Origin: Candidatus Hebobacterum abditum
GTDB taxonomy: Bacteria; Armatimonadota; Hebobacteria; Hebobacterales; Hebobacteraceae
Assembly (NCBI GenBank): GCA_029821875.1
Contig: JALGXW010000011.1
Span: 15,060 to 79,059 of the forward strand
Direction: 5' to 3'
Length of the DNA: 64,000 nt
Positions 13,191 to 32,329 of the stretch are shown here, one piece after another. Below the pieces are notes generated by a model. It worked only from the letters and a program-made list of their open reading frames with translations. It did not search any database and was not told the DNA's origin. Each line of letters begins with the position of its first letter. Position 1 is the stretch's first letter. The translations under genes and the position numbers were made by a program.

Positions 13191-13568
13191 GGCAGAATCC
13201 CTCCTTCACCGTCAGAATTCGAGCCTAGCACCAACATCTGGCCTCCGGCCGTAGTGGGCTACCCTGTCGCGGCGGCCCACGCCCAAACACACAGCACTCG
13301 CTTTGTCTGCTACCGACTGGCGTCCTGCGCAGAAGTCCGCACAACGCTACATAGCGGGAGCGAAGGACGTCGGCCTCACTCACTTGAATGGTGTGCACTC
13401 GTCCTACTAGAAAGGGATAGCTTGTTCATGTTGGGCCGGCATCACAATGTCCGAGGCGACGTGACAGGAGAACGTCGCAGAGCGGCCAACTAGCTTGAGG
13501 ATAGCCGATGTCTTGCTGAAGTGCTGCCTGAAGAGGATCCGACTTTCGCTAAGTCCGCGAGGAGTTTC

Positions 13569-16272: not shown

Positions 16273-16734
16273 GTCGATCCCTCCCAGTATTGCTCTGGGA
16301 ACCGACATGCTATCTTTGCTGTGCACAGCACAGCAGAGGTGCTGTCAGTCCGTGGGGTCTGCTGCGCCGAGCTCTCATGCCGCAGTACTCTCGCGGCCTT
16401 CAGCGCAAAACAGTCCCTGCTTGTTTGTTCCACAACCGGGGCGAGGACACAGATATCGTACAGCCAGGGCCCCTGAAAGCGACGTCTAGGCCTGTCTGAG
16501 CCGGAATGGCGATTCGCGCGCGGCTGCCGGCAGAGGCCTGAGAGGACATCGGCCGGGGAGTGCGACCATGCAGGTCCGGCCCTGGCGCTGCAGAAGACAC
16601 CTCCACGTCAGCTTCCCTGAGTTCTGCGAGCTGCCCGCGGCGGCACCCCCGTGCTGATGGCGGCCTGCGTGGGCCCTCGCCGGGAGCACGGGCGAGCCGA
16701 CGGGGACACCACGACACAGAGGGGATTCAGCACG

Positions 16735-19700
16735 ATGCTTGGGCGAGGCAGACATTCCTATCCTCATATTCTGGTAGCCTTCCTGCTTGCGGCGGGCGTG
16801 CTATGCGCGCCGGCGCTGGGCGATTTCGAGTTGCCCGGTGCCGCGGGTCGGGCGGTATGGGAGGCGGAGGAGGCGGAGCAGGTCGACGCGTGGGAAATCA
16901 GCGCGCCCGGCGCGAAGGGCGCGCGGTACGTGCAGCCCAGCACCACGCACGGCGAGGCGACGCTGCTGTTCCCGTTTGAGGCAGAGGGGGCAACGACGCT
17001 GCGAGTGCGGCCGGTGTGGTGGCGCAACGGAGAGCAGAAGCTCGCCCGGCGATTCCCCTATCCATTGGCGAGGAAGCCGGGGCCGGACGTGGTGGACTTC
17101 GTCGGGGGGAAGGTGTTCTGCACCGCGCCGGAGGCGGGGAACGTGCTGATCGTCGGTGCGGCCGAGGAGAAGGTAGTGGGGTCAGTGGCGGTGGGCGGAT
17201 ACCTGACCGACCTCGTAGCGGATCGCGAGGCGGGGAAGGTGTACGTGGCCGATGCGCTTGGCGACCGGGTGGTCGTGATCAACGCCGAGCGGCCAAGCGT
17301 GGTGGGGGGATTCAGCGTGTCGGGGAGCCCGTGGGCGCTTGCGCTGGATGGCGGGACTCTGTACGTCGCGTGTCGTGATGGGAAGCGCGTGGTCGCGCTC
17401 AGCGCGGCGTCGGGCGAGGTGAAAGGGGAGGCGCACTTCGAGGCCGCACCGATCGGTGTGGCGCTGGTGGGGGAGGGGGAGAAGCAGCTAGTCGTCCGCT
17501 TCCAAGAGCAGGCGTTTGATGTCTTCACGCTGGAGGAACTGACTCCGGACGAGGAGCGGTTCGCGGCCCTCGACATGACCGGCAAGCCGCCGGCCGGCTG
17601 CGGCGGGCCGACGTGTGACTGCAAATGGGTGGAGGCGGTGGGGCCGCACCAGATCGCGATCGTGAGTGAGAAGCGACGCGAGATCGTGGATGTGAGCGTC
17701 GTAACGCGTCGGCCGGAGGCGGCCGGTCTCGAGGGGCAGCTGCCTGAGAACCCAGGGCCCTGTGCACTCGCGATGATGTACATAGGGGAGCCGCCGCGCA
17801 AGCAAGTGGGGTTCTTCACCGCGCCGAGCAGGGGACTGGTGGGAGTTGTGGACCTCGACAACGGCGTGCTTGAGGACCCAGTTCTCGTGGGAGGGTATCC
17901 GGCGGGGCTGACGCGCGATGAGGATAACGAGAAGTTGTACGTGTGTGATGCCGCGGGCGACCGGGTGGTGGTGATTGATGCCGCAACTCGGCAGGTGGTG
18001 CGCGAGATCGCCGTCGCCGGGCAGCCCTGGTCGGTCGTGCTCGTGAAGGAAGTGGCCTGGCAGCGCCCCGGTGATTGGCAGCCGCGGCGGGGAGAGGGGC
18101 CGATCATCGAGCCAACGCAGGTGAACCGGCTATACGTGGCCTGTCGCGAGACGGAGGAGCTAGTTGCGATCGATCTGGAGACGGAGGAAGTCGTGGCACG
18201 CGCACGACTACGGGGTGAGCCGAGCCGGGCAGAGTTCGTGTCAATGCCATCTCCCGCCTGGTGGCCGGTGATGGCCGATGATCGGATCCCATTCGCGCTC
18301 CACCCGCGGCTGGCCGTGGCAAGGCGGCCGGTCTGGATCGACCCGGAGACGCTGGCGGCAACAGCTGCGCCGTCGGGCACCCTCGATGCCTTGCCGCGGC
18401 GGACCGAGGCGCAAGTCCCCGTGGGCGGCGCGACGAAGACGTTCGCCGCGGACAATGAGCTCGTCTTGGGCGTTGATGGAGAACGCTGGATCGACCTGAG
18501 CGAGGCGGCGGACGCGCAGCGGATGGCGGCCCGGCCGCTGCACGCGAAGGAGATGCCCGGCACGATCACGGTCTCGCTCGACGAAGGACCCGAGTACGAC
18601 TGGGCGCGTAGCATCTGGACAGCACCGGACAGCGAGCTGTTCCTGGTCAATGACTCGGACGAGTTCTGGCGCTACAACGCGGTGAGCGTGCCTGTGGAGC
18701 CGGGCAGGCACGTCCTCCGGGTGAAGGCGCACAGTCCCTACGCGCGGTTCGATGCGCTTGTGGTCAGGCGGTCGCTGGAGCCCGATCTGCTGATGGAGGT
18801 AGTTCCCGAACCGCGCGCAGTGCACGACCAAGTGCCACTCGCGTCATACCAAGGCGTGTTCTACGACGAGGAACCGGTGCGGTTCACGGTCGCGGTGACC
18901 AACAGAAGCGAGAAGCCGGTCCGCCTGCAGTGGGGAGGTTCCCTGCGCAACTACCTGGGTGAGGTGCTGGAGGAGTTCGGGGACGAAGAGGTGCTGACCG
19001 TCGAGGGGGGAGATACCGTCACGATGCCGCTGGCGTTTGAGCCCGAAGAGACGGGCCGGTTCGCGCTGAGGGTGGGTTGTGTCTCCTGGGGGGCACCGCG
19101 GGGGACGCTGGTCAGGGACGTGCGCTTCGTTCGGCTGCCCAAGCTCGAGCATCCGCGTCTGTTCTGGCGCGCAGACGAAGAGAACGACATCCGGGCGCGC
19201 ATCGCGCAGTACCCGAACCTGTTTCGGCGCTACGGCGAGTGGCTGGAGCGGATGGCGCAGCGGGAGGGCAGGTTCCCGGAGCGGTTCCTGCCCCCGGGGA
19301 TCACGCGGGACGAGCTGATGGCGGCTGCGCCGGAGGACATGCCGCAGTGGGAGAAACGGGAGGGCTGCGGCTGGCGGATGTATGAGCTCGGGTGGCGGGT
19401 GTTGGCCGCTCAGTTCGTGCAGCGCTTCCTGAAGCCGGACAGCGCGACGCTGAGCAGCAAGATCGAGGGACTGCGCGGCGCGGAGAGGGCCCAAAGCTAC
19501 ATCCAGTACCACCACCACGGCCCCTTCTTCCCCGGGACCGCGGCCTCACTGGTGGACTTCGCTCCTGGGGAAGCACGGCAGGAGATGAAGCTCGACGACT
19601 TCTTCGAGCAGCACATGGGGGACACGAACACACTGCCGTGGACCCTGGTGATGATCGAGGAGCCGCTGACACCCGTAAAGCGGGCGCTTGTCTACGAGTT

Positions 19701-21348
19701 GGCGACATGGACGACCAATGCAGAGAGGTACTTCGAGGCCCGTCGGGGGGAGCGAGGCGGTCCGTGGTGGCTCGACCCGTATACAGGATGCCGGTGCCCG
19801 AACAGCGGGTACACCATCAGCTTCGTGCTGATGAGCAACTTCCTCGGGGAGCCGCGGGTGTTCGAGAACCCGATCTTCCGCGGCTACCTCACGTTCCAGC
19901 GATACGCCGACCCGATTCGCGACAACCGCACACTCATGCCCGGGCGGAGAGGGCCGAACGGCGAGCCGTGGCGGTGGCTGCTGAGCGCGCTCTGCCGGCA
20001 TCCTGTCGACAAGTCGGTCTACGGATGGGAGGAGTGGGTCGAGACGATGGAGGGGCCTTTGCCCGATGACGAGGAAGCGGCCGTGGATAGTCTCATGGCG
20101 CTGGAGGGGCGCGAGCTCGCCGGGCCGCTGTACGGGAACACGCACTACTTCGTGTCGGGCGTGGCCGTGCCGGTAGCACTCGCCCTTGGCTGGTACGATC
20201 CTGGCGCGCCGGAGGTGCAACCGGACGAGCTGCCGCCAACGGCCGCCTTCGATGTGGAGGGCTGGGTGGCGATGCGGTCCGGCTGGGATTTCCAGGCGAC
20301 CGAGGTGACGTTCGTCTCGGGCGTGAGGGACCACACGACGCGACACAAGCCAAACCACGTCACGATTGTGAAGAGTGGGGAGTTTCTACTCGGGACGCCG
20401 AGCCTGCTTTGGGATGACGGCAACAACGTGGGCGTCTGGGGGAACAGCGTCGTGGTCGGTGACGACTGGACCGAGCAGTGGCGGATGAACCTCCAACACC
20501 CGCGGGATGGCGAGCACATGGTTATCAACCGGTTCTCCCCGTGGAACTGGACCTACATCGCGCGGGACCGGCACATGGCGGGGTACAGACCTTCGGAGCA
20601 GGCCTGGGGCGGGGGACTGAACCTGCACGGACACACCGAGACGATGTTCATGAACGAGGGTCGATTGCTGGCCTACCAGACGTGGCCCGACCTAGACTAC
20701 GTCGCCGGCGACGCGAGCAACGCTTGGCGGTGCGAGGAGGTGGCACAGCTCGACCGGCAACTCGTGTTCCTCAAGCCCGACGTAGTAGTCGTCTACGACC
20801 GGGTGAAGCTCGGGCCGGAGGCCGATGAATCCCGGTGGCTGGCTGCAACGGGGCTGCATCTGCAGATCGAGGGGAGCACGTTCCGCGTGTTGAGCCGGTC
20901 ACGGTGCTTGGTGGGGGCGGTCGTGCTGCCAGACGAAGCGGTGCTCGCGACCCCAGAGCTCCCGGAGGACGCGTGGTATTGGCGCGGACAGCAAGCGCTC
21001 GAAGTGAGGCCGCCCGGACCGCGCGACGAAGTGGAATACCTCGTGGTGATGCGAGTCGGCGAGCCATGGCCGGCCTACCCGCGGCCGGAGCTGATCGAGC
21101 GTGAGGGCCGGGTGGGCGTGAGGCTGACGCTGGAGGATCGGGAGATCGCGGTGGCCTTCAACCGCGGCGGTGCGGTCGGCGGTAGAGCCACCATCGAAGC
21201 GGACGGCACGGTGAGCCGCTACGATCTTCGCGAGGAGATCGTAGACAGCTACGCGGGGTGGCAAGATGACCCGCGGCACGAGAGGTGGGAGCAGGAGCGG
21301 TTTGGGTTCATGGTGCCCGAGGTAGCGGCCAGCTCGGGGCGACACTGA
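16735..21348 (+). CDS. secreted YVTN-type beta-propeller repeat protein fused to a heparinase II/III-like (polysaccharide lyase-like) region
   Basis: Signal peptide MLGRGRHSYPHILVAFLLAAGVLCAPALG. Repeated motifs GKVYVADALGDRVVVI / EKLYVCDAAGDRVVVIDA. The later region, with HPRLFWRADEENDIRARIAQYPNLF and HKPNHVTIVKSGEFLLGTPS, resembles DUF4962 plus heparinase II/III. Confidence 0.8.
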   Translation: MLGRGRHSYPHILVAFLLAAGVLCAPALGDFELPGAAGRAVWEAEEAEQVDAWEISAPGAKGARYVQPSTTHGEATLLFPFEAEGATTLRVRPVWWRNGEQKLARRFPYPLARKPGPDVVDFVGGKVFCTAPEAGNVLIVGAAEEKVVGSVAVGGYLTDLVADREAGKVYVADALGDRVVVINAERPSVVGGFSVSGSPWALALDGGTLYVACRDGKRVVALSAASGEVKGEAHFEAAPIGVALVGEGEKQLVVRFQEQAFDVFTLEELTPDEERFAALDMTGKPPAGCGGPTCDCKWVEAVGPHQIAIVSEKRREIVDVSVVTRRPEAAGLEGQLPENPGPCALAMMYIGEPPRKQVGFFTAPSRGLVGVVDLDNGVLEDPVLVGGYPAGLTRDEDNEKLYVCDAAGDRVVVIDAATRQVVREIAVAGQPWSVVLVKEVAWQRPGDWQPRRGEGPIIEPTQVNRLYVACRETEELVAIDLETEEVVARARLRGEPSRAEFVSMPSPAWWPVMADDRIPFALHPRLAVARRPVWIDPETLAATAAPSGTLDALPRRTEAQVPVGGATKTFAADNELVLGVDGERWIDLSEAADAQRMAARPLHAKEMPGTITVSLDEGPEYDWARSIWTAPDSELFLVNDSDEFWRYNAVSVPVEPGRHVLRVKAHSPYARFDALVVRRSLEPDLLMEVVPEPRAVHDQVPLASYQGVFYDEEPVRFTVAVTNRSEKPVRLQWGGSLRNYLGEVLEEFGDEEVLTVEGGDTVTMPLAFEPEETGRFALRVGCVSWGAPRGTLVRDVRFVRLPKLEHPRLFWRADEENDIRARIAQYPNLFRRYGEWLERMAQREGRFPERFLPPGITRDELMAAAPEDMPQWEKREGCGWRMYELGWRVLAAQFVQRFLKPDSATLSSKIEGLRGAERAQSYIQYHHHGPFFPGTAASLVDFAPGEARQEMKLDDFFEQHMGDTNTLPWTLVMIEEPLTPVKRALVYELATWTTNAERYFEARRGERGGPWWLDPYTGCRCPNSGYTISFVLMSNFLGEPRVFENPIFRGYLTFQRYADPIRDNRTLMPGRRGPNGEPWRWLLSALCRHPVDKSVYGWEEWVETMEGPLPDDEEAAVDSLMALEGRELAGPLYGNTHYFVSGVAVPVALALGWYDPGAPEVQPDELPPTAAFDVEGWVAMRSGWDFQATEVTFVSGVRDHTTRHKPNHVTIVKSGEFLLGTPSLLWDDGNNVGVWGNSVVVGDDWTEQWRMNLQHPRDGEHMVINRFSPWNWTYIARDRHMAGYRPSEQAWGGGLNLHGHTETMFMNEGRLLAYQTWPDLDYVAGDASNAWRCEEVAQLDRQLVFLKPDVVVVYDRVKLGPEADESRWLAATGLHLQIEGSTFRVLSRSRCLVGAVVLPDEAVLATPELPEDAWYWRGQQALEVRPPGPRDEVEYLVVMRVGEPWPAYPRPELIEREGRVGVRLTLEDREIAVAFNRGGAVGGRATIEADGTVSRYDLREEIVDSYAGWQDDPRHERWEQERFGFMVPEVAASSGRH

Positions 21349-21696: not shown

Positions 21697-23433
21697 ATGA
21701 CTGTGTCCGCGGAGACGAACAGCAGCGATAGCGAGAAGCGGCCTGCAAAGGCGCTCCTTGTCCTTCGAGTCCTGCTCGGGATGGCGCTTGCTCCGGGAAT
21801 CCTCATTGCCGTGGTTGCGGCCGCGTCCGGCCTCGTCGAGAGCGCCGACGCGCTCGATCTCTGGATGTCGGGCGTGGCCGACATGCTCGCCCTGCGGGCC
21901 GAGACGCTGGCTCTGCTTGTCGCGCTCGTAGTCGCCATCCCGGGTCTGATGCTCGCGGGTCTGCTAGCGCGCCCGCGCTGGTGGTTGCCGGCCGTGCTGC
22001 CCTTCCTCCTTGGCTGCCTCCTTTGGCACGTGATGATGCGCGACATCAGCGCAGGATACGCCTACCCTTACTACATACAGCTGCTGTCCGTCTTGCACGT
22101 GGCGGGGACGGGTGCCGCCTTGTTCTTCGGCTGGCTGGGCTCGCGCCTCGCGCGCGGTGCCGGGGCCAGACAGACGTTGATTGCCCTGGTGACCCTATGG
22201 ACTGGCGGAGTCTGTCTCCTCGCGCTGGGCCGCGCGGAGATGGGGGATGACTCGGCCCTCGCGTTCTGGTTGTTCGCCGCGGGCTTTGAGTTGGGCCTGG
22301 GCGTGGTCGCGCTCGTCGGTTACTGGACGAGAGAAAACAGAGACCTTCTCCAGGTGAGCTGGGTGCTCTGGTGTCTCGTGGCCCTGGCCGCGGTTGCCGT
22401 TGGGCGTGGACTGGCGGCGGCCGGAGCGCTGGCCTGGTACTCTCCGCTGCCAGCGCTTGTGGTCGGGGGCGCGGTGTTCTCTGCGCTTGGCCTCGTGGCG
22501 GCCGCGCTGAGGCGCTCGAAGGTGGCCAAACGCCTCACGCGGGCCAGGGCCGTCCTCGGTCTCGCGTGTGTTGCGTCAGCAGCGGTAACCATGGCGCTGG
22601 CCAGGCTCTTCCCTCACCCCGCGCTTGCCAGCGCCGGTGGCTCGGGCTACGTCCTTCTGTCTGTTTCCCCAGGACTGGCTTCCTCCGTCGAGTTTCGCGC
22701 CGACCGCGTGCGGATAGCAGGCAGCCCAGACGGCCTCGACGACGCGCCATGGGTGGCGAGCGATTCCGTCGCCCCACCATACACGACCTTCTTGCCAGTC
22801 GGGGTGCCAGTGCCGCGAGAACAGCTGCCACCTGGGTGTGCCGGAGTGCAGGCGCGCTTCCAACTGATAGACTTCGATTATCTCTCGTTCGGCGCGAGAC
22901 GATGGGGCAAGCGCGCGGCGCTCCACGACATGATGGGTATAGTTGATGTCGGCTATCTCTTCAGGGATGCAGGGGGAGGCGACTGGACATACTGGGTGGG
23001 CGCGGGCTGGTTTGACATATCGGCGTCGGCGGATGGATCAAAGTTGGTGGAGATTCCTGCCTCTCCCCCCGACCGACCTGAGCTGACACTCTCGGTAGAC
23101 CTCGAGCGCGAGGAGAGGCACCACGTCGGGTTCGGCCTACGGCTCACGAGCGCAGACCGCATCATCGAAGACGTCGAGCGGGACGGCGAGAGCGTGTTGG
23201 CCAGTCTCGTCGTCTCTGATGCATCCGGCAATAGAGTGGTCTCCACGCGGGGCACGCTTGACGATCTGGGCTTCACCTGAGGGGGCCCCTGCTACTCCGT
23301 GCGAGTAGCCGACCCGGGCAGCTACGTGTGCAAGGCTGCGATCGACGTTGGCCCGTTGGGCGGCATGCTTGAGGCCGAGTCGGCCTTCACGGTCCCCCAG
23401 CGGCCGCAGACACGTCGCCGGCTGAGCTACTGA
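21697..23433 (+). CDS. polytopic membrane protein with C-terminal extracytoplasmic domain; putative selenoprotein (in-frame TGA at 23278..23280)
   Basis: The ORF to 23280 is clear, with about 8 hydrophobic helices followed by a soluble domain. Reading TGA as Sec adds 50 codons (GGPCYSVRVADPGSYVCKAAIDV...) that are homologous to the post-TGA tail of the 24543 gene. A hairpin lies 10 nt after the TGA. Confidence 0.6.
23291..23309 (+). promoter_or_regulatory. putative bacterial SECIS hairpin
   Basis: GCUACUC-CGUGC-GAGUAGC is a perfect 7-bp stem with a 5-nt loop containing GU. It starts 10 nt after the TGA at 23278..23280. Confidence 0.55.
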
Positions 23434-23601
23434 CAGCGTCGTGTGGCGGCCTGCGGCGCACTGGCGCCGAGGGGGAGTTTGTGCTAACCTACGTGGAAGC
23501 CGACTGCGGCTCTCTAAGGGACACGACGCGCCTCGATCCCTCACGGACAGAGGGAGGGCTCGCTTTCGATAGAATGTGTCGCGACGAAAGGAGCTGCTGA
23601 G

Positions 23602-24480
23602 ATGAGATGGCTGCCTGTGCTGTTGCTGGTCGCGCTACTGCTTCCTGCTCCGGCCGAGGGTTCCTCGGAAGAGCCAGTGGCGGTCACTGCCCTTCTCTCG
23701 GGCGAGGTTGCACCTCTGGTCATCACGCTCGGCAGCCTCGACAGCGGGTGGTGCCGGTTCACCACTGGTGGGGGCGGAGGCACGGACATCTACTCCGCGA
23801 TGTATGGCATACAGCCCTCCCCCTACTACACAAAGGGAGAGACCGTCTGCGCTGGCGACCAAGTGTATCTGCTCGCCTACAAGACCGAGACCCGTCAGGC
23901 AGGCTACTTGGCACTCATGACTGGCCAGCGAGACATGGAGGATGTCCCCGCGGTCACGGCGGAGACGGAGCTCGGCCTGTGTCTTCTCAATCTCGCCACC
24001 ATCGGCAGCTTCCTTGACATCAGCGCCTTCGACCTGGAGTCGGAGATCCAACGCTACGCGGAGGCCGCCGAGCGGCTGGAGACCACTCTCGCGGGGATGC
24101 GGGGCGGCTATGATTACGAAGAGGGGGCCGCCGAGGACAACCTCGACGAGATCGCTCTGGCACTCGAGATGTACACCATCGACCACGGGGACGTTCTGCC
24201 TCCTATGTCTACGCAGGAGGAGTGGCAGGAGGCGCTAAGCTGGTACGTGGCTGACTTATCGGTCTTTGTCGATTCGGCGACGGCCGAGCCATATCCCATC
24301 AATGCATCTCTGTCAGGTGTGGAGCTGGCCTCGATGGAGGAGCCTGGGGAGATCGTCGCCGTCTACGAAGCTCAGCTTCGTGACGACGAGACACGAAAGG
24401 TCGTCTTTGCCGACGGCTCCACTGGATACATCGCCGAGGACGCCTGGGCCCAGATGAAGGCTGCATCGGGCATCCAATAA
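23602..24480 (+). CDS. secreted hypothetical protein
   Basis: Signal peptide MRWLPVLLLVALLLPAPAEG and SD GAAAGGAG upstream. The C-terminal half (NLDEIALALEMYTIDHGDVLPP...VFADGSTGYI) loosely resembles the conserved C-terminal module of DUF1559/pseudopilin-like proteins. Confidence 0.75.
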   Translation: MRWLPVLLLVALLLPAPAEGSSEEPVAVTALLSGEVAPLVITLGSLDSGWCRFTTGGGGGTDIYSAMYGIQPSPYYTKGETVCAGDQVYLLAYKTETRQAGYLALMTGQRDMEDVPAVTAETELGLCLLNLATIGSFLDISAFDLESEIQRYAEAAERLETTLAGMRGGYDYEEGAAEDNLDEIALALEMYTIDHGDVLPPMSTQEEWQEALSWYVADLSVFVDSATAEPYPINASLSGVELASMEEPGEIVAVYEAQLRDDETRKVVFADGSTGYIAEDAWAQMKAASGIQ

Positions 24481-24542
24481 GTTGATGGCCGGCAGGCAAG
24501 GGCCATGAGGGGCCGCCTTTTGGAGGCGAGTTAGGACCTGGA

Positions 24543-25373
24543 ATGCGACACGCGCTGAAGCTCAGTCTGGCATGTATGCTGCTGGCAGGGGCGCTGTTAG
24601 CCCCTGCCCACGCCGCGCCGAAGGCGGTCTACGTCAAGCTGACGTCAGGCACTGACGGCGGGCCGGTGGCGTACGCGGAGCTTCGAGGCAACGAGATCCG
24701 CGTGGCTCCCACCGTCGAGCGGCTCGTCGACGCAGAGGCCATAAAGGCAAGTGATGCCGGCCTCGAGCGCCATGGCAACATGGCCTATCAGCACGGCACG
24801 TTCCCTTCCGTCGACCTCCCGGCGCAGGACCCCGAGGTCGCGAAGGTGTCCGCCACATTCTCGGTGTGGCGCGCGGTGAGTCGGAGCCGGAGCCGACGTT
24901 GGGAAACAGAGAACTTCAGGGTCAGCGCCGAGATATCGTTCGCTAAGCGCGGCCCCGGCGGCGCGGTCTGGACCTATGTGTTCAGCTCCCACGCCGAGGC
25001 GAGCGCGGCGACGCAGCCGTCGAAGGCCGCCAGCCTCGCCATCCCGCCCCTTGAGAAACTCCAACTGAGTATGGAGACCCAGGTGAAGGGGAGAGAGGCG
25101 GGCATTGGCCTGCGGCTGAAGTCGGGCGAAGTCGTTCTCACCCACGTGCGCCGCAACGGCGATGCCGCCGTGTGCACGCTGGAGATCTATGACCGGCAGG
25201 GACAGAAGGTGAGCACCCACAAGGGCGATCTCCAGAAGTTCGGGTTTACCTGATCGGGACCATGCTACTCCGTGAGAGTGGCCAATCGAGGATCGTATGT
25301 AGTCAAGGCGACGGCGGATGTGAGCGCGGATGGCCAGCCGCTGACCGCGGAGGCGAAGCTCTTCGTTCGCTGA
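24543..25373 (+). CDS. secreted protein, paralog of the C-terminal domain of the 21697 gene; putative selenoprotein (in-frame TGA at 25251..25253)
   Basis: Signal peptide MRHALKLSLACMLLAGALLAPAHA. Reading through the TGA adds SGPCYSVRVANRGSYVVKATADVSADGQPLTAEAKLFVR. A hairpin lies 10 nt after the TGA. A rho-independent terminator follows the extended stop, not the TGA. Confidence 0.6.
25264..25282 (+). promoter_or_regulatory. putative bacterial SECIS hairpin
   Basis: GCUACUC-CGUGA-GAGUGGC is a 7-bp stem with one U-G wobble replacing the U-A pair seen in the paralog, and a 5-nt loop with GU. It starts 10 nt after the TGA. Confidence 0.55.
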
Positions 25374-25397
25374 ACTGCTGGCGCGGATACTGCAATG

Positions 25398-25432
25398 GCG
25401 CCACGGCCCGGATTGGGTCGTGGCGCTTTCTT
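25398..25432 (+). terminator. rho-independent terminator candidate
   Basis: 8-bp stem GCGCCACG ... CGTGGCGC followed by TTTCTTCGTG, located 25 nt after the extended stop at 25373. Confidence 0.55.
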
Positions 25433-25564
25433 CGTGTCCTCGCGGGGACGGCGAGCAAGCGGGCCAGGCGAGCAGCCGGCGTGGCCGGACGTGAGGAGCA
25501 CAGCTCGGGAGGCTGCTGAGAGACTGCCGGCGCTGACGCCGGCCGGGATATGTGAGAGGACGGC

Positions 25565-26794
25565 ATGGAGCGCGAGCGGACAACAGCCTTCAGCGAAGCC
25601 TGCAACGCCGGAGAGCCGGCCGTCGCGCCGGACGGTAAGGGAGACCCGTTCGCCTGGTTCGCTTCGATGCTGCCTAACTGCCTGGAGTACGCGAAGGCGG
25701 CCAAAGCGGAGGGGCGGCCGATCGTCGGCATAACGTGCGAATACACGCCGAGAGAACTGATAGTCGCCGCCGGGGCGGTCCCGGTGTGCCTGTGCGGCGG
25801 CTCCGCGGACACCATTCCTACGGCCGAGCGAGACCTTCCCGCCAACCTGTGTCCGCTGGTCAAGTCCACCTATGGCTACCACGCAGAGAAGGGCAACCCA
25901 CTCCTTGAGATGGCCGATCTGCTTGTGGTCGAGACGACCTGCGACGGCAAGAAGAAGATGTACGAGCTGATGGCCGAGAGCCGGCCCGTGCATCTGCTCG
26001 AGCTGCCGCAGAAGGCGGAAGACGATGCTGCCTTCGAGCACTGGGCGGGCGAGCTTCGCGCCCTTGTCGCCGTGCTTGCGGAGAAGCTCGGCGGCTCGCC
26101 GTCCCAGGATGGCATCGAGAGCGCAATTCGAGCCATGAATCGCGAGCGATCGCTGCGGCGCGACCTGGCCGCCCTGATGCAGTCGGACGCCCCCCCGCTA
26201 ACCGGACGGCAACTGCTCGACTGCCGAAGCATCATCGCCGGCGTTCCTGTGGCTCTGGAACAGTATGAGCGGACGCTGGACATGCTTCGGGCCGGGGAAG
26301 CGCGTGGCGAGATGAATTCGGGGGTGCGCGTGCTGATGACAGGCGTGCCGATCGTCCGGGGAGCGGAGCGCGTTGTGGACATAGTCGAAGGAGCCGGCGG
26401 CCTCGTCGTCTGCATGGAGAACTGCACAGGTGTCAAGCCGATTCTCGACGACGTCGCAGAGGGTACGCCCGATCCGATGCACGCGATAGCCGAGAAGTAC
26501 TTCGCGCTGCCCTGCTCGGTGATGACGCCGAATGAGCGACGGCAGACGACGCTCCGTCAGCTGGCGGAGGAGTACCGACCACAGTGCGTGATCGAGCTCA
26601 TCTGGCAGGCCTGCCTGACCTATGACGTTGAGTCGTTCTTCATCCGGCGTCTGGCGGAGGAAGAACTCGGGATACCGTATCTTCGAATCGAGACGGACTA
26701 CTCGCCATCCGACTCCGCGCGCATTGAGACACGGGTGCAGGCTCTCTTCGAGACGGTGCGCGGGCGGTCTGTTGCCGAGACGAGAAGAGGATGA
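25565..26794 (+). CDS. 2-hydroxyacyl-CoA dehydratase family / double-cubane-cluster (YjiM-like) protein
   Basis: 409 aa with conserved Cys positions (ITCEYTPRELI, VCLCGG, NLCPLVKS, ETTCDGKKKMYE). It is a single subunit immediately followed by an activase gene. Confidence 0.75.
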   Translation: MERERTTAFSEACNAGEPAVAPDGKGDPFAWFASMLPNCLEYAKAAKAEGRPIVGITCEYTPRELIVAAGAVPVCLCGGSADTIPTAERDLPANLCPLVKSTYGYHAEKGNPLLEMADLLVVETTCDGKKKMYELMAESRPVHLLELPQKAEDDAAFEHWAGELRALVAVLAEKLGGSPSQDGIESAIRAMNRERSLRRDLAALMQSDAPPLTGRQLLDCRSIIAGVPVALEQYERTLDMLRAGEARGEMNSGVRVLMTGVPIVRGAERVVDIVEGAGGLVVCMENCTGVKPILDDVAEGTPDPMHAIAEKYFALPCSVMTPNERRQTTLRQLAEEYRPQCVIELIWQACLTYDVESFFIRRLAEEELGIPYLRIETDYSPSDSARIETRVQALFETVRGRSVAETRRG

Positions 26795-26797
26795 GCC

Positions 26798-27571
26798 TTG
26801 ATCTGTGCTGGCATTGACGCGGGCTCCAGGACGACCAAGATCGCCCTCATGGGAGACGGCGACGAGGTGCTGCTCGCGTCGGCGGTGGGCGAGCCGGGTG
26901 CGTGCACCGCGACTCAGGCGGAGGAGCTGTTCGAGAAGACCGTCGCGCAGCACCAAGTGGACCGGGACCGCATCGGGCGCGTCGTCGCAACGGGATACGG
27001 CCGCGCGGCACTACAGATGGCCGATACGACCGTCACCGAGATAACATGCCATGCCCGCGGGGTGCAGTTTCTCGAGCCAAGAGCGGCCACCGTGGTGGAG
27101 ATCGGCGGACAGGATAGCAAGATCATCCTGCTGGACGGGAACGGCGGGGTCCGCGATTTCGTCATGAACGACCGTTGTGCGGCTGGCACAGGTCGATTCC
27201 TGGAGATGGTCGCGGAGCGCCTCGACGTCGGGGCCGTGGGGCTTGGCGAGTTGGCGGCCGGGAGTCAGAAGCCAGCGACCATCAATCCCACTTGCGCCGT
27301 CTTTGCGGAGACTGAGATCATCGGACTGCTATCGGCCGGCGCGAAGCCCCAGGACGTCGCGGCCGGCGTGCAGGAAACCGTCGCCACCCGCATGGCGACT
27401 CTGGCCGTAGGCAGGGCCGAGCGGCCCGTGGTCTTCGCCGGTGGCGTGGCGCTGATACCGGGGATGGCCAGCGCGCTGAGTCGCGCCCTTGCGTGTCAAG
27501 TAGAGGTGGCGAGCGCGCCGCAGCTCACCGGAGCCATCGGAGCGGCGCTCATAGCCTGCCGGGAGGCATGA
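26798..27571 (+). CDS. CoA-substrate-specific enzyme activase (BcrAD/BadFG/HgdC/YjiL-type ATPase)
   Basis: ICAGIDAGSRTTKIAL, VVEIGGQDSKII, NDRCAAGTGRFLE (cluster-ligating Cys), CAVFAETE. TTG start. Confidence 0.85.
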   Translation: MICAGIDAGSRTTKIALMGDGDEVLLASAVGEPGACTATQAEELFEKTVAQHQVDRDRIGRVVATGYGRAALQMADTTVTEITCHARGVQFLEPRAATVVEIGGQDSKIILLDGNGGVRDFVMNDRCAAGTGRFLEMVAERLDVGAVGLGELAAGSQKPATINPTCAVFAETEIIGLLSAGAKPQDVAAGVQETVATRMATLAVGRAERPVVFAGGVALIPGMASALSRALACQVEVASAPQLTGAIGAALIACREA

Positions 27572-27688
27572 TGCGTTGAGCAGGCCGCGCGAGCAGCATG
27601 TTGAGAACGGGACAGATGGGTGCTATGATGATCTGTCTGCTGGCAACATCACGAGTCGCCTTGAGGGACTGTCAGAAAGGACCCTTCC

Positions 27689-27967
27689 ATGACAGCAGGC
27701 AGGGCAGGCTTCCTGGTCTCGCTGGTGCCACTGGCGGTCTATCTCTCCGCGATATGTTCCCAGCCTGGCTGAGGGACGTCTGTCGGAAGCCTGTTAGGCT
27801 TCCTCGCGGTGGGATCGATCCCGGTGGCCCTTGGGCTTGGCATCAAGGGCCGGCGGCAAGGCGTTGACCGTGCGTACGCGACAGCAGGATTGCTGATCAG
27901 CAGCGTGACAGCGGCGTTTGTCTTGTTGCTGCTTGGTGTCGGGCTCGCCATGTCGGTGTATAGGTGA
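27689..27967 (+). CDS. small two/three-helix membrane protein; putative selenoprotein (in-frame TGA at 27770..27772)
   Basis: Hand translation: MTAGRAGFLVSLVPLAVYLSAICSQPG-TGA-GTSVGSLLGFLAVGSIPVALGLGIKGRRQGVDRAYATAGLLISSVTAAFVLLLLGVGLAMSVYR. Both halves are hydrophobic. A hairpin lies 12 nt after the TGA. The stop is 31 nt upstream of selD. The post-TGA half has no convincing start codon of its own. Confidence 0.45.
27785..27803 (+). promoter_or_regulatory. putative bacterial SECIS hairpin
   Basis: GGAAGCC-UGUUA-GGCUUCC is a perfect 7-bp stem with a 5-nt loop containing GU, 12 nt after the TGA at 27770..27772. Confidence 0.5.
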
Positions 27968-27997: not shown

Positions 27998-29629
27998 ATG
28001 GTGGCAGGTACGTCAAAGCGGGCGCGAGTGATGGGTCGGTCTGCCCGCGTTGGGCACTGCATCTGCGATCCGAGGAAGCCGTGCCCCTGCGACGTCTTCC
28101 TGGAGCAAGACGTGTGTCTCTGTGCGGGCGAACGCCTGCCGGACGCCGACAGCCCCACGGAGTCGATCGCCTTGACCAAGCTAGTGAAGAACGCTGGCTG
28201 CGCCTCGAAGATCCCTCCCGCCTACCTGGCATCGATTCTCTCCCGCCTACCGAGGATAGAGGACCCGCGGCTGCTCGTCGGGAGCCACACAGCGGACGAC
28301 GCCGGGGTCTTCGAGATCGCCCCTGATCTGCTCCTGGTGCAGACGGTCGACGTCTTCGCTCCCTGTGTCGATGATCCGTACGAGTTCGGACAGATCGCGG
28401 CCTGCAACTCGCTGAGCGATTGCTACGCAATGGGTGGGACCCCGCTCACTGCGATGTCTGTCATCGGCTACCCCGCGCATACCTTGAGCGATGAGTGGAT
28501 GTGCCAGATCCTACGGGGGGGCATGGACAAGCTGGCGGAGGCCGATGTGGTCCTCGTCGGCGGCCACAGCGCCAACGACGACGATATCAGGTTCGGCTTC
28601 GCAGTGACTGGCATCGCGAGCCAGGCCGACCTGATCACCAACGCAGGCGCGCAGCCGGGTGACCTGCTCATCCTGACGAAGCCCCTGGGAACGGGGATAG
28701 TCGCCTTCGCCTCCCAGGTCGGACGCGCCTCGGAGGAGGACAAGCGAGCGTCCGCGGCCTCCATGATGATGCTCAACCGGGCCGCGTCGCAGGTCATGCG
28801 CGAGGTTGGCGCTCATGCCTGCACGGACGTCACGGGATTCGGCCTCCTCGGCCACCTTCGCCACATGGTGTGCGCAAGCCGCGTCACAGCAGAGGTCTGG
28901 TGGGAGAGACTGCCGCTGTTCGAGGGGATCGGGGGATATGCTCTGGACGGCCTGGTCTCCGGGGCCGCCGAACGCAACCGGGAGTTCGCCGGGGAACTGA
29001 CCGAGGTGGGGGAGGCGACCCCGGAATGGGTGTTGGATGTCCTCTATGACCCGCAGACATCGGGGGGACTGCTGATTTCCGTTGCGGCCACATCGGCCGA
29101 GCCCACTGTCTCGCGGCTCAAATCGCTGGGGTGCACCGAGTCCGCCGTAGTCGGCCAAGTGACCGAGGAATCGGAGGGGAGGATACTGGTGAAGAAGGCA
29201 GATGAGAGTGCCGCGAGTGACGCCGTGTCGGGCTCACCCGCGCGTGACAGGGCGGCGCAAGACGACATCGCGTCGGCAGCCTCGCGGAGTGTGCCTGTGG
29301 CAGAGGCGAACACCGAGGAATGCTGCGCGCCTGGCAGCGCTCCCGCCGACGCGAGCGAGACGCAGAGGCGGTTCAGCCAGTTCATGGGCGCCGCCTTCGG
29401 GCCCGGCGCCCTGGACGTGGTTCAGAAAGAGCTCGTCACGATCGCGCTGTCGGTTGCGACGCGCTGTGAGCCATGCCTCAAGGTTCACCTGGACAAGGCC
29501 GAGAAGATGGGAATCTCGGCTGATGAGGTGAAGGAGGCCGCCTGGATGGGCGTGGCCTTTGGCGGCGCCAGCGCGATGATGTTCTGGACGGAAGCATCGA
29601 AGCTGCTGCTTGATGACGAAGGCGCGTAG
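27998..29629 (+). CDS. selD: selenide, water dikinase (selenophosphate synthetase) with N-terminal Cys-rich extension and C-terminal AhpD/carboxymuconolactone-decarboxylase-like domain
   Basis: SelD core: LTKLVKNAGCASKIPP (Cys form of the catalytic loop), DDAGVFE, QTVDVF, GGHSANDDDIRFG, TDVTGFGLLGHL. N-terminal HCICDPRKPCPCDVFLEQDVCLCAGE. The C-terminal roughly 90 aa contain the RCEPC (CxxC) motif typical of AhpD-like domains. Confidence 0.9.
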   Translation: MVAGTSKRARVMGRSARVGHCICDPRKPCPCDVFLEQDVCLCAGERLPDADSPTESIALTKLVKNAGCASKIPPAYLASILSRLPRIEDPRLLVGSHTADDAGVFEIAPDLLLVQTVDVFAPCVDDPYEFGQIAACNSLSDCYAMGGTPLTAMSVIGYPAHTLSDEWMCQILRGGMDKLAEADVVLVGGHSANDDDIRFGFAVTGIASQADLITNAGAQPGDLLILTKPLGTGIVAFASQVGRASEEDKRASAASMMMLNRAASQVMREVGAHACTDVTGFGLLGHLRHMVCASRVTAEVWWERLPLFEGIGGYALDGLVSGAAERNREFAGELTEVGEATPEWVLDVLYDPQTSGGLLISVAATSAEPTVSRLKSLGCTESAVVGQVTEESEGRILVKKADESAASDAVSGSPARDRAAQDDIASAASRSVPVAEANTEECCAPGSAPADASETQRRFSQFMGAAFGPGALDVVQKELVTIALSVATRCEPCLKVHLDKAEKMGISADEVKEAAWMGVAFGGASAMMFWTEASKLLLDDEGA

Positions 29630-29702
29630 GGACAACTGTGCCCTCTTCTATGGAATGCGCGGAGGACCTCGGGTCGAAGTCAGGCAGCGTTGACGTCGAG
29701 GC

Positions 29703-29801
29703 GGGAGCGGATTGGTTCTGGTGGACCTCCCCGGGCTTCAAACCCGGCGGTGGGGCCCTGATAAGGTCCTGGGTGGGTTCGATTCCCACACGCTCCCGCC
29801 A
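29703..29801 (+). tRNA. selC: tRNA-Sec (anticodon UCA)
   Basis: Anticodon arm CCGGG-CUUCAAA-CCCGG with UCA at positions 34-36. Long variable arm GGGCC-CUGAUAA-GGUCC. T arm GUGGG-UUCGAUU-CCCAC. Acceptor GGGAGCG/CGCUCCC, then G73 and an encoded CCA. It lies between selD and selA. Confidence 0.85.
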
Positions 29802-29850
29802 ACTCGGTCTGACGACTTGATTCAAGCGGAGAACCGTTCCTAGAGAGCAC

Positions 29851-30756
29851 ATGAGCACGAGCGACCGCCGACAGCGACTGCTGGAGAAACGGCCACGAGT
29901 GCAGCTCTACTCCCTCGTTGTGCTCAACAGCTACATCCTCGCACCTGTCGGCAAGTACATCTGCCTGCCTGTGCTGAACTGCTACGCCTGCCCGATTGGG
30001 ACCGTCGCTTGTCCGGTCGGAAGCATCACCGCCTTCGTTATGGTGCCCTACTTCCCATTCTACGTCATCGGCATGCTGGGCATCGCCGGCCTTGCCGTCG
30101 GCAGAGCCTTCTGCGGATGGGCCTGCCCGTTCGGGTACGTGCAGGATCTGCTCCATCGCATCCCTGGCCGCAAGTTCGGGCTGCCTCGTGCACTCGACGC
30201 GACGAAGTACGTCTTGCTAGTCGTCCTTGTGGTGGGCCTTCCTCTTCTGCTTGGCAACCCGTACGACTTCACGGGAACTGAGCGAGTCGTCTTCGAGGCA
30301 GGCGGCACGTGGGACTACTGTGCACTGGTGTGCCCTGTCGGGACGCTCCAGGCGGGTGTGCCCGGCCTCATAGCCAATGCCGACTTCCGCGAGAAGGCAT
30401 CGTGGCGCACGGCGAGCAAGCTCGCCATCCTCGCTATCGTGTTGGCCCTCGCCGTGCTGTCGCACCGGAGCTTCTGCCGAGTTCTGTGTCCGCTTGGCGC
30501 ACTCATGGCGATCGCCTCGATTGTCAAGCTGCCCCGGCTTCGCACCGATCAGGGCGCGTGCACGCGCTGCCTGCGCTGCCGCCGCACATGCCCGACCAGC
30601 AGTCGCTTAGTACCAGAGAATGCCGGCGAGGGCGAGGCCACCTCCGAGTGCGTTCTCTGTCTCGAATGTGTGCGGGTCTGCCCTGAGGCCGGCGCGCTCT
30701 CTGCTTCCCTGGGAGGGAAGTCCCTGGTGACATCCGGAGGAAAGACGAGTGAGTAG
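29851..30756 (+). CDS. NapH/NosR-type membrane 4Fe-4S polyferredoxin
   Basis: CxxxCP motifs (NCYACPIG, VACPVGS, GWACPFGYVQDLL, LVCPVGT, VLCPLGA) within TM segments, plus two ferredoxin motifs CTRCLRCRRTCP and CVLCLECVRVCP. Confidence 0.8.
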   Translation: MSTSDRRQRLLEKRPRVQLYSLVVLNSYILAPVGKYICLPVLNCYACPIGTVACPVGSITAFVMVPYFPFYVIGMLGIAGLAVGRAFCGWACPFGYVQDLLHRIPGRKFGLPRALDATKYVLLVVLVVGLPLLLGNPYDFTGTERVVFEAGGTWDYCALVCPVGTLQAGVPGLIANADFREKASWRTASKLAILAIVLALAVLSHRSFCRVLCPLGALMAIASIVKLPRLRTDQGACTRCLRCRRTCPTSSRLVPENAGEGEATSECVLCLECVRVCPEAGALSASLGGKSLVTSGGKTSE

Positions 30757-30877
30757 GAAGACCTGGATACTGGTTGCTGTCGTGCTGTCGGTACTGGCCG
30801 CATGCCTCGCGTATGGCATCTACCTCGGCGACCCGGGCTATGTGTTCGCCAATGCCCTGGCCGTCTGCTATACGTGA
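30749..30877 (+). CDS. possible 42-aa single-helix membrane peptide
   Basis: GTG at 30749 overlaps the polyferredoxin stop. The translation is VSRKTWILVAVVLSVLAACLAYGIYLGDPGYVFANALAVCYT. It is below the track cutoff and has no homology support. Confidence 0.3.
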   Translation: MSRKTWILVAVVLSVLAACLAYGIYLGDPGYVFANALAVCYT

Positions 30878-30898
30878 CCGCTAGGAGAATGACCGCGC

Positions 30899-32323
30899 GT
30901 GTCGCGGCCCAAACCCAACAACGGTGATGACGATCGGTCCGCCCTCCGGCGGCTCCCGCGCGTGGACGACCTCCTCGCGCACCACCTGCTGGCCGACCTG
31001 GTTCGGCGCGCGCCCCGCTCTGTCGCGCTCAGTGCTGCCCGGGACGCGGTGGCCGAGGCGCGGGAGCAGATCCGCCGAGGCGAGGACATGTCCGACCACG
31101 ATTTGGTCGCGGCGCGAGCGGCCGAACTCCTGGAGGGACGCCTGCGGCCGAGCCTCCGTAGGTGCATCAACGCAACCGGTGTCATCCTTCACACTGGGCT
31201 CGGCCGAGCGCCCTTCTCGGCGGCCGCGCAGAGCGCGGTGGCGGAGGTGACGAAGGGATACAGCAACGTGCAGGCCGACATCGCAACGGGCCAGCGCGCC
31301 AGCCGGGAGGCACACGTGGAGTGGCTCCTCGAGCAGATCTGCGGTGCTCCCGCGGCGGTGGTCGTGAACAACAACGCCGCGGCGACGGTGCTCGTACTGA
31401 ACACACTGGCGGCCGACCGAGAGGTCATCGTCTCCCGCGGTGAGCTCATCGAGATCGGCGGAGCGTTCCGTCTTCCCGATATCATCCGTCTGGCGCGCTG
31501 CCGATTGGTCGAGGTCGGCTGCACGAACAGAACACACCTGCGCGACTATGAGCAAGCGATTACAGGGGACACCGCGCTGCTGCTCTCGATCCATCAAAGC
31601 AACTACGTGATCCAGGGCTTTGCCTCTCAGGTGGACATCAGCGAGATCGCCCGATTGGCGAAGTCCCGCAATCTGGTGTGCGCGCACGACCTCGGCAGTG
31701 GGGCGCTGGTCGACCTGCGCCGCTTCGGCTTGCCCTATGAACCTGTGGTGCGGGTGAGCCTGGAGGGGGGCGCCGACATTGCCTTCTTCAGCGGGGACAA
31801 GCTGCTCGGCGGGCCGCAGTGCGGGGTAATCGTGGGCGAGGCCGATCTTCTGCAGTCGATGCGTCAGAACCCCTTCTATCGCACCTTCAGGGTCGACAAG
31901 CTCACGCTCGCCGCGCTCGAGAGTACCCTGCGTCTCTTCTTGGATGTTGACGCACTGCCCGACACGCATCGCGTCATCGCCATGCTGACCGTCCCCGTGG
32001 AAGAGCTGAGGGCCCGAGCCCAAACGCTGGCGGAGACCGCGCGCGAGCGTTGTGGCTCCTGGCTTCGCACAGACGTGCGCGACGGGGAGTCGCAAGTCGG
32101 CGGCGGCTCTCTTGCAGGCCACGCGCTTCCCACTGCGCTCGTGGCGCTCGTGTCCGATCGCGTGTCGCCGCTCGAACTTGCGCGTCGGCTCCGCGCAGGC
32201 GATCCACCGGTGTTCGCGCGAGTCGGGGACGACGCCGTGCTCCTCGATGCCCGCACTATGGAGGCGAGCGACGACGCTCCTCTCGTACATGCCCTGGAGC
32301 AGGTGGGTCGCTCCCTTGGGTGA
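30899..32323 (+). CDS. selA: L-seryl-tRNA(Sec) selenium transferase
   Basis: GELIEIGGAFRLPDI and FSGDKLLGGPQCGVIVG (PLP lysine motif). The 474-aa length fits SelA. GTG start with AGGAGA upstream. Confidence 0.9.
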   Translation: MSRPKPNNGDDDRSALRRLPRVDDLLAHHLLADLVRRAPRSVALSAARDAVAEAREQIRRGEDMSDHDLVAARAAELLEGRLRPSLRRCINATGVILHTGLGRAPFSAAAQSAVAEVTKGYSNVQADIATGQRASREAHVEWLLEQICGAPAAVVVNNNAAATVLVLNTLAADREVIVSRGELIEIGGAFRLPDIIRLARCRLVEVGCTNRTHLRDYEQAITGDTALLLSIHQSNYVIQGFASQVDISEIARLAKSRNLVCAHDLGSGALVDLRRFGLPYEPVVRVSLEGGADIAFFSGDKLLGGPQCGVIVGEADLLQSMRQNPFYRTFRVDKLTLAALESTLRLFLDVDALPDTHRVIAMLTVPVEELRARAQTLAETARERCGSWLRTDVRDGESQVGGGSLAGHALPTALVALVSDRVSPLELARRLRAGDPPVFARVGDDAVLLDARTMEASDDAPLVHALEQVGRSLG

Positions 32324-32329
32324 GGCCTC

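Follow-up and report, generated by a model that had tools for sequence, protein, structure and literature searches.

The archetypal bacterial selenocysteine insertion sequence (bSECIS) elements, those of fdhF and fdhA in E. coli and Moorella thermoacetica, are hairpins within an open reading frame that start approximately 11 nt past the UGA, carry a small apical loop in which a G is followed by U or G, and have a cognate SelB with winged-helix domains. The quoted bSECIS consensus has a loop of 3–9 nt, an upper stem of 4–16 bp, 16–37 nt between the UGA and the loop, and a minimum free energy (MFE) of at most −7.5 kcal/mol (PMC13188914). Either the first or the second loop base is a G, as a rule with G or U after it, and the published loop pattern is N1-G-[G|U]-N-N2, in which N1 pairs with N2 (PMC13188914). 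The proteins that depend on such elements fall into approximately 110 catalogued prokaryotic selenoprotein families, nearly all of which have cysteine (Cys) homologues (PMC13188914, PMC12013277). Here we describe three hairpins, each downstream of an in-frame UGA, in a 64,000-nt stretch of the Candidatus Hebobacterum abditum genome (GCA_029821875.1, contig JALGXW010000011.1), which we refer to as the window. We document the anatomy of these elements, the conservation of their UGA codons and reading frames, the covariation in their RNA, the decoding machinery encoded beside them and their synteny. On this evidence the hairpins are very probably bacterial SECIS elements, with the UGAs read as selenocysteine (Sec) in three selenoproteins that belong to two families, P1 and P2 of family A and P3 of family B.

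Three compact hairpins beside a complete Sec-decoding set

All three genes lie on the + strand. In P1 (21697-23433), translated through its TGA, the UGA at 23278-23280 is followed after 10 nt by hairpin 1 (GCUACUC-CGUGC-GAGUAGC, 23291-23309). P2 (24543-25373), a paralogue of P1 likewise translated through its TGA, has its UGA at 25251-25253 and hairpin 2 (GCUACUC-CGUGA-GAGUGGC, 25264-25282), again 10 nt downstream. In P3 (27689-27967) the UGA is at 27770-27772 and hairpin 3 (GGAAGCC-UGUUA-GGCUUCC, 27785-27803) follows after 12 nt. The frames stay open for 50, 39 and 65 codons past the TGA in P1, P2 and P3, respectively. A first-pass annotation of the window had reported these 7-bp stems, 5-nt loops and spacers of 10–12 nt, and both direct reading and a script bore them out, along with the placement of the loop G at the 19th nucleotide after the UGA in sites 1 and 2 and at the 21st in site 3. 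RNAfold returned each hairpin as the local minimum-energy structure, with MFEs for the 19-nt hairpins of −8.9, −8.5 and −11.6 kcal/mol (sites 1, 2 and 3); the U-A variant of family A from other genomes gives −6.6 kcal/mol. In site 3, loop bases U1 and A5 are able to pair, and RNAfold gives 8 bp with a 3-nt loop.

The 3′ arms of the two paralogues differ as GAGUAGC and GAGUGGC, which makes one pair U-A in site 1 and U.G in site 2 and keeps the helix, as had been noted earlier. This wobble substitution is part of a wider pattern, with that pair being U-A in 27 and U.G in 19 of 46 family A sequences. Hairpin 3 has a different sequence (GGAAGCC/UGUUA/GGCUUCC) in a like geometry, as the same annotation recognized. 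Its proposal of a shared N-G-U-N-N loop holds for all three copies in the window but not for the family of site 3, in which orthologues have UGGCA and UGGUA.

Compared with described bSECIS elements, the three hairpins fall within the published bounds for loop, stem, loop G, spacing and MFE. The UGA-to-loop distances of 17, 17 and 19 nt agree with the earlier suggestion that they lie in the bacterial range and are inside the published 16–37 nt (PMC13188914), although they are very short and sit at its low end. Like the archetypes, the window elements are small in-frame hairpins with a G-U in the apical loop; in contrast to them, they show no conserved long lower helix. If the U of the UGA is taken as position 1, the loop G-U occupies positions 22–23 in P1 and P2 and 24–25 in P3, and in E. 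coli fdhF it is G23-U24.

The geometry alone is at chance level. Hairpins with a 7-bp stem and 5-nt loop occur 70 times on both strands of the window, compared to approximately 62 in first-order Markov simulations, and those with a TGA 10–12 nt upstream number 3 observed versus 2.3 expected. With the NGUNN loop rule, 4 hairpins remain in the 128 kb of both strands, 3 of which are the elements described here, against an expectation of 0.08 and a maximum of 1 in any of 100 simulations. The full motif follows none of the 1516 other TGAs on both strands of the window, so that the refuting condition set at first pass, a similar frequency after random TGAs, is not borne out here. Because the NGUNN rule was derived from the same three elements, we do not rely on the motif count and take the comparative data as decisive; the count by itself was rejected as proof, being at chance level without the loop rule. 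Separately, a search for further selenoprotein genes in the window and 64 related loci gave 12 extra matches of an in-frame TGA with a relaxed SECIS-like hairpin under a requirement for coding-like flanks, and all 12 look like non-coding frames.

The machinery for decoding Sec is encoded in the same cluster. The set of SelD, tRNA-Sec, SelA and SelB is complete at 27998-34252, 0.2–6.5 kb downstream on the same strand. SelD (27998-29629; TIGR00476, 354 bits) is of the Cys type and is fused to a C-terminal AhpD/CMD CxxC domain (PF02627). The protein is three-part, with an N-terminal Cys-rich stretch (CICDPRKPCPCDVFLEQDVCLC), a Cys-type core (GCASK) and the C-terminal AhpD/CMD domain bearing a CEPC motif. 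The tRNA-Sec gene, with anticodon UCA (29703-29801), was found by ARAGORN and by Rfam (RF01852, scoring 67.3 bits where the gathering threshold is 47), and SelA (30899-32323) matches PF03841 at E=5.5e-132. SelB (32330-34252), encoded 4.5–9 kb downstream of the hairpins, carries SECIS-binding winged-helix domains (PF09107, PF25461, PF09106), homologous to those that serve the archetypal elements. Its C-terminus matches the mRNA-binding domain of Moorella SelB, which has been crystallised with SECIS RNA (PDB 1LVA, 2UWM, 2PLY, 1WSU), and an SRKY motif is common to both. We infer SelB binding, Sec insertion itself and, further below, the function of the proteins. The C-terminal winged-helix domain of SelB would bind the apical loop (G, then U or G) of each hairpin and bring Sec-tRNA(Sec) to the ribosome, where the UGA would be read as Sec and translation would proceed for 50, 39 and 65 further codons in P1, P2 and P3.

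Conservation of the UGA codons, frames and RNA structure

P1, the membrane-anchored form of family A, has 527 residues from the first ATG, then Sec, then 50 residues; hydropathy gives approximately 8–9 hydrophobic segments followed by an ectodomain. Its Sec context is ...LGFT-U-GGPCYSVRVADPGSYVCKA..., the segment past Sec beginning GGPCYSVRVA. P2, the secreted form, has a signal peptide and consists of 236 residues, Sec and 39 residues (...FGFT-U-SGPCYSVRVANRGSYVVKA..., motif GFT-U-SGPCYSVRVA). The motif of the family is GFT-U-xGPC, in which Sec is accompanied by a Cys four residues on (U-x-x-x-C). The paralogues share 32% identity over 243 residues (E=6e-28) in an alignment that is continuous across the TGA. 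On L001, a syntenic contig with 58% identity, all three TGAs are retained with their downstream frames and hairpins, and the P1 orthologues on L001 and on a second related contig, L004, share with P1 both the TGA and the 50 codons past it.

Across a wider sample, the TGA does not vary. DNA pattern scans left the Sec position open to TGA, TGC or TGT but prescribed most of the 5′ arm. In GTDB species genomes, 8 of 8 matches had TGA, and the named matches were Armatimonadota, including Ca. Hebobacteria; a metagenome scan returned 50 loci. Over all loci after that scan, TGA was present in 70 of 71 pattern matches, the lone TGT being an unrelated chance match. TGA is found at all family A loci and is invariant in approximately 50 distinct sequences from Armatimonadota metagenome-assembled genomes and metagenomes, even though Cys codons were allowed. 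The frame past the UGA is open for 37–58 codons in these relatives (105 in one), and the segment it encodes has conserved residues (G250, Y252) and third-position-biased variation.

Protein databases present a truncated picture of the family. Word-indexed searches returned only proteins of 225–236 residues terminating at the TGA, and the database homologues of P2 end precisely at its UGA. When 1.84 billion representative proteins were searched exhaustively with a hidden Markov model (HMM), 236 clusters matched, and among the best 150 approximately 140 stop right after ...GFT, at the position of the TGA. Approximately 8 others among the best 150 of the 236 are full-length relatives without Sec, which have W, R, E, L or S at its position and have also lost the +4 Cys. 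The HMM search also returned P0042 (479 residues), a tandem family A module in which the first copy is non-Sec (…DFALS-S-MGIP-R-YSAPV…) and the second ends in …DFGFT, presumably at a Sec-UGA.

The RNA of family A was analysed over 46 distinct sequences and 322 stem cells. Of these cells 99.1% are paired, and the loop is C-G-U-G-N in 46/46 sequences. Stem pair 5 is C-G in 32 sequences, U-A in 13 and U.G in 1, and C.A never occurs. At this pair, a silent TAC to TAT change in a Tyr codon goes with a Val to Ile change (GTA to ATA) on the opposite arm. On a rough neighbour-joining tree, from which the hairpin-encoded residues were left out, pair 5 is implied to have switched state independently approximately 4–5 times, and the U.G intermediate adjoins the U-A clade. 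The contrast between synonymous sites is the cleanest control for selection at the RNA level. Third positions of invariant Gly, Pro and Ala codons in the spacer and 3′ flank have an entropy of 1.5–1.9 bits, whereas inside the hairpin Cys is TGC, Ser is TCC and Val is GTG in all 46 sequences, three third bases that the search pattern had left free (TGY, TCN and GTN allowed). An Arg/Gly codon in the hairpin is A-ending in 45/46, despite 66% GC overall and approximately 80% GC at third positions. Averaged over third positions, entropy drops from 1.57 in the spacer to 0.50 in the hairpin, compared to 1.29 upstream and 1.45 downstream.

Family B has a signal of the same kind. P3 is a protein of 92 residues with three hydrophobic segments and Sec28 between the first two (...QPG-U-GTSVGS..., motif PG-U-G). 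Searches over the related loci with tblastn and regular expressions found 8 distinct orthologue sequences that retain this segment, including that of the window; all retain the TGA, and they lie directly upstream of selD in every case inspected. Among the 7 that align without gaps, 56/56 stem cells are paired. One pair appears as A-U, G-C and U-A and another as G-C and C-G, and a Ser codon-family jump from AGC to TCC is matched by a change in the 3′ arm. The loop of these 7 sequences is U-G-[U/G]-N-A, with U1 able to pair with A5, and fits the published N1-G-[G|U]-N-N2; in the orthologue at one further locus, L049, the same stem is capped by a loop of 8 nt. Covariation in both families, together with the frozen synonymous sites, indicates a structure under selection. 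P3 might be a mere Sec-sensing leader peptide that regulates selD; however, its hydrophobic segments and a G-[FY]-A-I-[AS]-G motif are conserved at the protein level, and we treat it as a real protein for this reason. In a close relative (locus L064, GCA_975903045.1, CDLKKX010000492.1, 2418-2606), the P3 orthologue is without approximately 90 nt, among them the Sec codon, the SECIS 5′ arm and the hydrophobic segment that comes first in P3, with the junction at the repeat AGGCTTCCT, the 3′ arm of the hairpin. This deletion may reflect a naturally occurring form without Sec or else a collapse in the assembly.

Several observations weigh against reading these UGAs as Sec codons served by SECIS elements. 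Part of the hairpin conservation in family A is protein-driven, because the hairpin encodes the most conserved peptide of the family (C-Y-S-V-R-V-A); the search pattern itself fixed most of the 5′ arm; and only a single pair covaries. The family B evidence comes from 7–8 sequences. No Cys-for-Sec homologue was found for family A in word-indexed searches or among the best 150 of 236 HMM hits, nor for family B in the word-indexed search, so that the Sec/Cys pair by which selenoproteins are customarily recognized is lacking for both families. As the non-Sec relatives of family A are without both U and the +4 Cys, these two residues behave as a coupled pair. In addition, the window stems are perfect 7-bp helices, whereas the fdhF element of E. 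coli has a bulged U. Rfam, searched at gathering thresholds and at E≤10, reported only tRNA-Sec and no SECIS family over the hairpins, and the covariance-model comparison proposed at first pass gave no SECIS match in 23200-27900 even at E≤10. Rfam SECIS families are lineage-specific. Given the missing bulged U and the missing Rfam match, we file the hairpins as candidate bSECIS elements of the general SelB-binding kind and not of the fdhF subtype.

The first two of these points lend some weight to an alternative in which the hairpins are a by-product of protein conservation (C-Y-S-V-R-V-A in family A, G-S-L-x-G-F/I in P3) and have no function as RNA, for the family A hairpin does cover the most conserved protein residues and the 5′ arm was constrained by the search. 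We consider this account very unlikely. Third positions that the protein leaves unconstrained are invariant in the hairpin yet free 3–9 nt away in like codons, and the A-ending Arg/Gly codons run counter to the composition of a GC-rich genome. A synonymous change on one arm is answered by an amino-acid change on the other (TAT with ATA), with C.A never seen, and in family B the switch of Ser codon family comes with compensation. Moreover, two unrelated peptides arrive at the same geometry at the same UGA distance.

A slightly poorer prospect is that the TGAs are true stops of pseudogenes or naturally short genes, with the downstream frame and hairpin incidental or serving as an attenuator. Public gene callers do terminate these proteins at the TGA, and without the loop rule the observed geometry is close to expectation. 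However, such stops would have to be kept as TGA through approximately 50 diverged sequences, each followed by an open frame of conserved length and residues, and paralogue similarity runs continuously across them. Full-length non-Sec homologues align through this position, and the AlphaFold (AF2) model of one has a predicted local distance difference test score (pLDDT) of 90.6, compared to 83.6 for a model of the truncated P2. None of the three SECIS hairpins is followed by a T-tract, and a terminator-like site follows the extended P2 stop instead.

UGA is reassigned in some uncultured lineages. Recoding here to something other than Sec, whether by a reassigned code (Gly or Trp) or by hairpin-stimulated near-cognate read-through, is just as improbable as a true stop. 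The single non-Sec homologue that keeps GFT-x-GGP does have Arg at that position, for which CGA, a single base away from UGA, would be a possible codon. However, UGA ends ordinary genes of the window such as the reductase (26792) and selA (32321), a complete Sec system including tRNA-Sec lies in the cluster, its position covarying with that of these genes, and the spacing and loop G fit SECIS elements of the SelB type.

The surrounding gene cluster and its recurrence

The cluster, all on the + strand, runs in the order P1, a 292-residue protein, P2, a reductase, its activase, P3, SelD-AhpD, tRNA-Sec, a NapH-like protein, SelA and SelB. The 292-residue protein between P1 and P2 (23602-24480) is secreted and conserved; tblastn places it next to family A genes in 18 related loci, and it has no Pfam or NCBIfam match. 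Downstream of P2 are a double-cubane-cluster reductase (25565-26794; NF040772 at 390 bits, where 350 is the cut-off), together with its ATP-dependent activase of the BcrAD/BadFG type (26798-27571; TIGR00241, PF01869), and the NapH-like membrane polyferredoxin (Fer4_5; 29851-30756, PF12801 and NapH models) stands between tRNA-Sec and selA. A GC-rich terminator-like hairpin of 14 bp with a T-tract (25397-25427) begins 24 nt past the extended P2 stop, and a promoter-like site with an extended −10 (TTGAGA-17-TATGAT, 27601-27629) lies 60 nt upstream of P3. Together, these two sites suggest that P3/selD and the genes that follow form a separate transcription unit. In L001 and L004, the region orthologous to the terminator-like hairpin also carries an inverted repeat of this kind, with a T-rich run behind it. 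Upstream of the cluster, the window encodes a radical-SAM/SPASM protein with a C-terminal SEC-C motif (13521-14855) and a 1565-residue YVTN/NHL beta-propeller repeat protein (16651-21348).

The association with selenium genes recurs well beyond the window. Among 28 family A loci, counted as those with at least 4 kb of downstream sequence or with a sel gene seen, 23 have selD, selA or selB in the same locus. Gene orders differ among loci, one example being selD / family A / NapH-like / selA / selB. The reductase and activase recur in synteny in 10–12 related loci, and the NapH-like polyferredoxin is kept between selD/tRNA-Sec and selA in 13; to our knowledge, such a protein does not normally belong to sel operons. 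In Armatimonadota, families A and B are constant members of the selD/tRNA-Sec/selA/selB cluster. The presence of the reductase has a wider parallel, in that 955 of 970 double-cubane reductases were found in SelD-containing genomes, for which no mechanism was offered (Haft & Gwadz, 10.1101/2022.07.06.499078).

Relation to known selenoproteins and a possible role in selenium supply

In several respects P1, P2 and P3 resemble the selenoprotein families catalogued in NCBIfam, BSepDB and deep-Sep: the database proteins are truncated at the Sec-UGA, a short Sec motif has a Cys nearby, and TGA-containing homologues occur in many organisms. They differ from these families in having neither a Cys-for-Sec homologue nor a family model, as searches of Pfam-A and NCBIfam 20.0, including its curated selenoprotein models, with P1, P2 and P3 (U written as C) gave zero families at E≤0.01. 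Neither GFT-U-xGPC nor PG-U-G turned up in a search of a 2026 review (PMC13188914). Current prediction pipelines discard candidates without Cys homologues (PMC13188914, PMC12013277), which would explain why these families were missed. At the level of gene content, the selenocysteine-assisted organometallic (SAO) locus offers a parallel, for it too clusters several selenoproteins, including transport- or membrane-associated ones, beside an NF040772 reductase and its activase. In contrast, the window proteins match no Sao family model, being either of a beta-sandwich type or small membrane proteins, and they reside in the sel operon proper instead of a cassette apart from it.

Structural modelling gives the family A proteins a probable architecture. 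The truncated P2 model has no fold match in PDB, and the AF2 model of the full-length non-Sec homologue has two beta-sandwich domains, for which Foldseek returned only generic Ig, FN3, PKD and macroglobulin-type beta-sandwich matches; a sequence-profile search of PDB, for which the family A alignment was used, had no credible match. As these matches are generic and show no enzyme-like fold, we make no functional assignment from structure. Family A is accordingly modelled as two Ig/FN3/PKD-like beta-sandwich domains, exported or membrane-anchored, and the alignment of P0152 with P2 would place the Sec position, in U-x-G-P-C, in a second-domain loop. For P2, the signal peptide suggests that its Sec faces outward, and by analogy the Sec in the P1 ectodomain may do so as well. 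For P3, the positive-inside rule, applied to the KGRRQG loop that joins hydrophobic segments two and three, also suggests an outward-facing Sec.

The thiol-pair relay of MerP, MerT and MerA for Hg(II) offers a functional analogy, although there is no kinship in sequence or fold. Like that relay, the cluster would have a soluble periplasmic chalcogen pair (P2, U...C), membrane proteins whose chalcogen lies close to the outer surface (P1 and P3) and a cytoplasmic acceptor with an extra CxxC (SelD-AhpD). Our best guess, held with low confidence, is that P1, P2 and P3 possibly act in selenium capture or as a redox relay. In such a scheme, an extracytoplasmic selenol/thiol site would capture or reduce selenium species, or those of another chalcogen or a metal; the selenium species would be relayed via the membrane-bound Sec proteins toward the SelD-AhpD enzyme; and the NapH-like ferredoxin and double-cubane reductase would keep the capture site reduced. 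The specific proposal that P2, P1 and P3 together form a Sec-based extracytoplasmic capture-and-relay pathway feeding environmental selenium to SelD-AhpD, with reducing power from the NapH-like protein and the ATP-driven reductase, is speculative, and we think it more probably wrong than right.

The SECIS mechanism is already known, and what appears to be new is the two protein families and their placement in the sel cluster. Because the RNA signal itself is textbook, recognition of the SECIS elements mainly corrects annotation, that of three genes in the window and of hundreds of database entries truncated at the Sec codon. The compact 19-nt SECIS is potentially useful in engineering Sec insertion. 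For the biology of the lineage, the significance lies in families absent from Pfam-A, NCBIfam 20.0 and the 2026 review that are predicted to be exported or outward-facing and are embedded in the sel cluster across a phylum-level lineage, adjoining the double-cubane reductase. If the relay were true, these would be selenoproteins that never tolerate Cys, because Sec itself would carry or exchange the selenium, and they would constitute the long-sought physiological selenium donor pathway for selenophosphate synthetase. The delivery of selenium to SelD in vivo is incompletely elucidated (PMC13188914), and the cluster provides a concrete candidate for how selenium may reach SelD in the cell.

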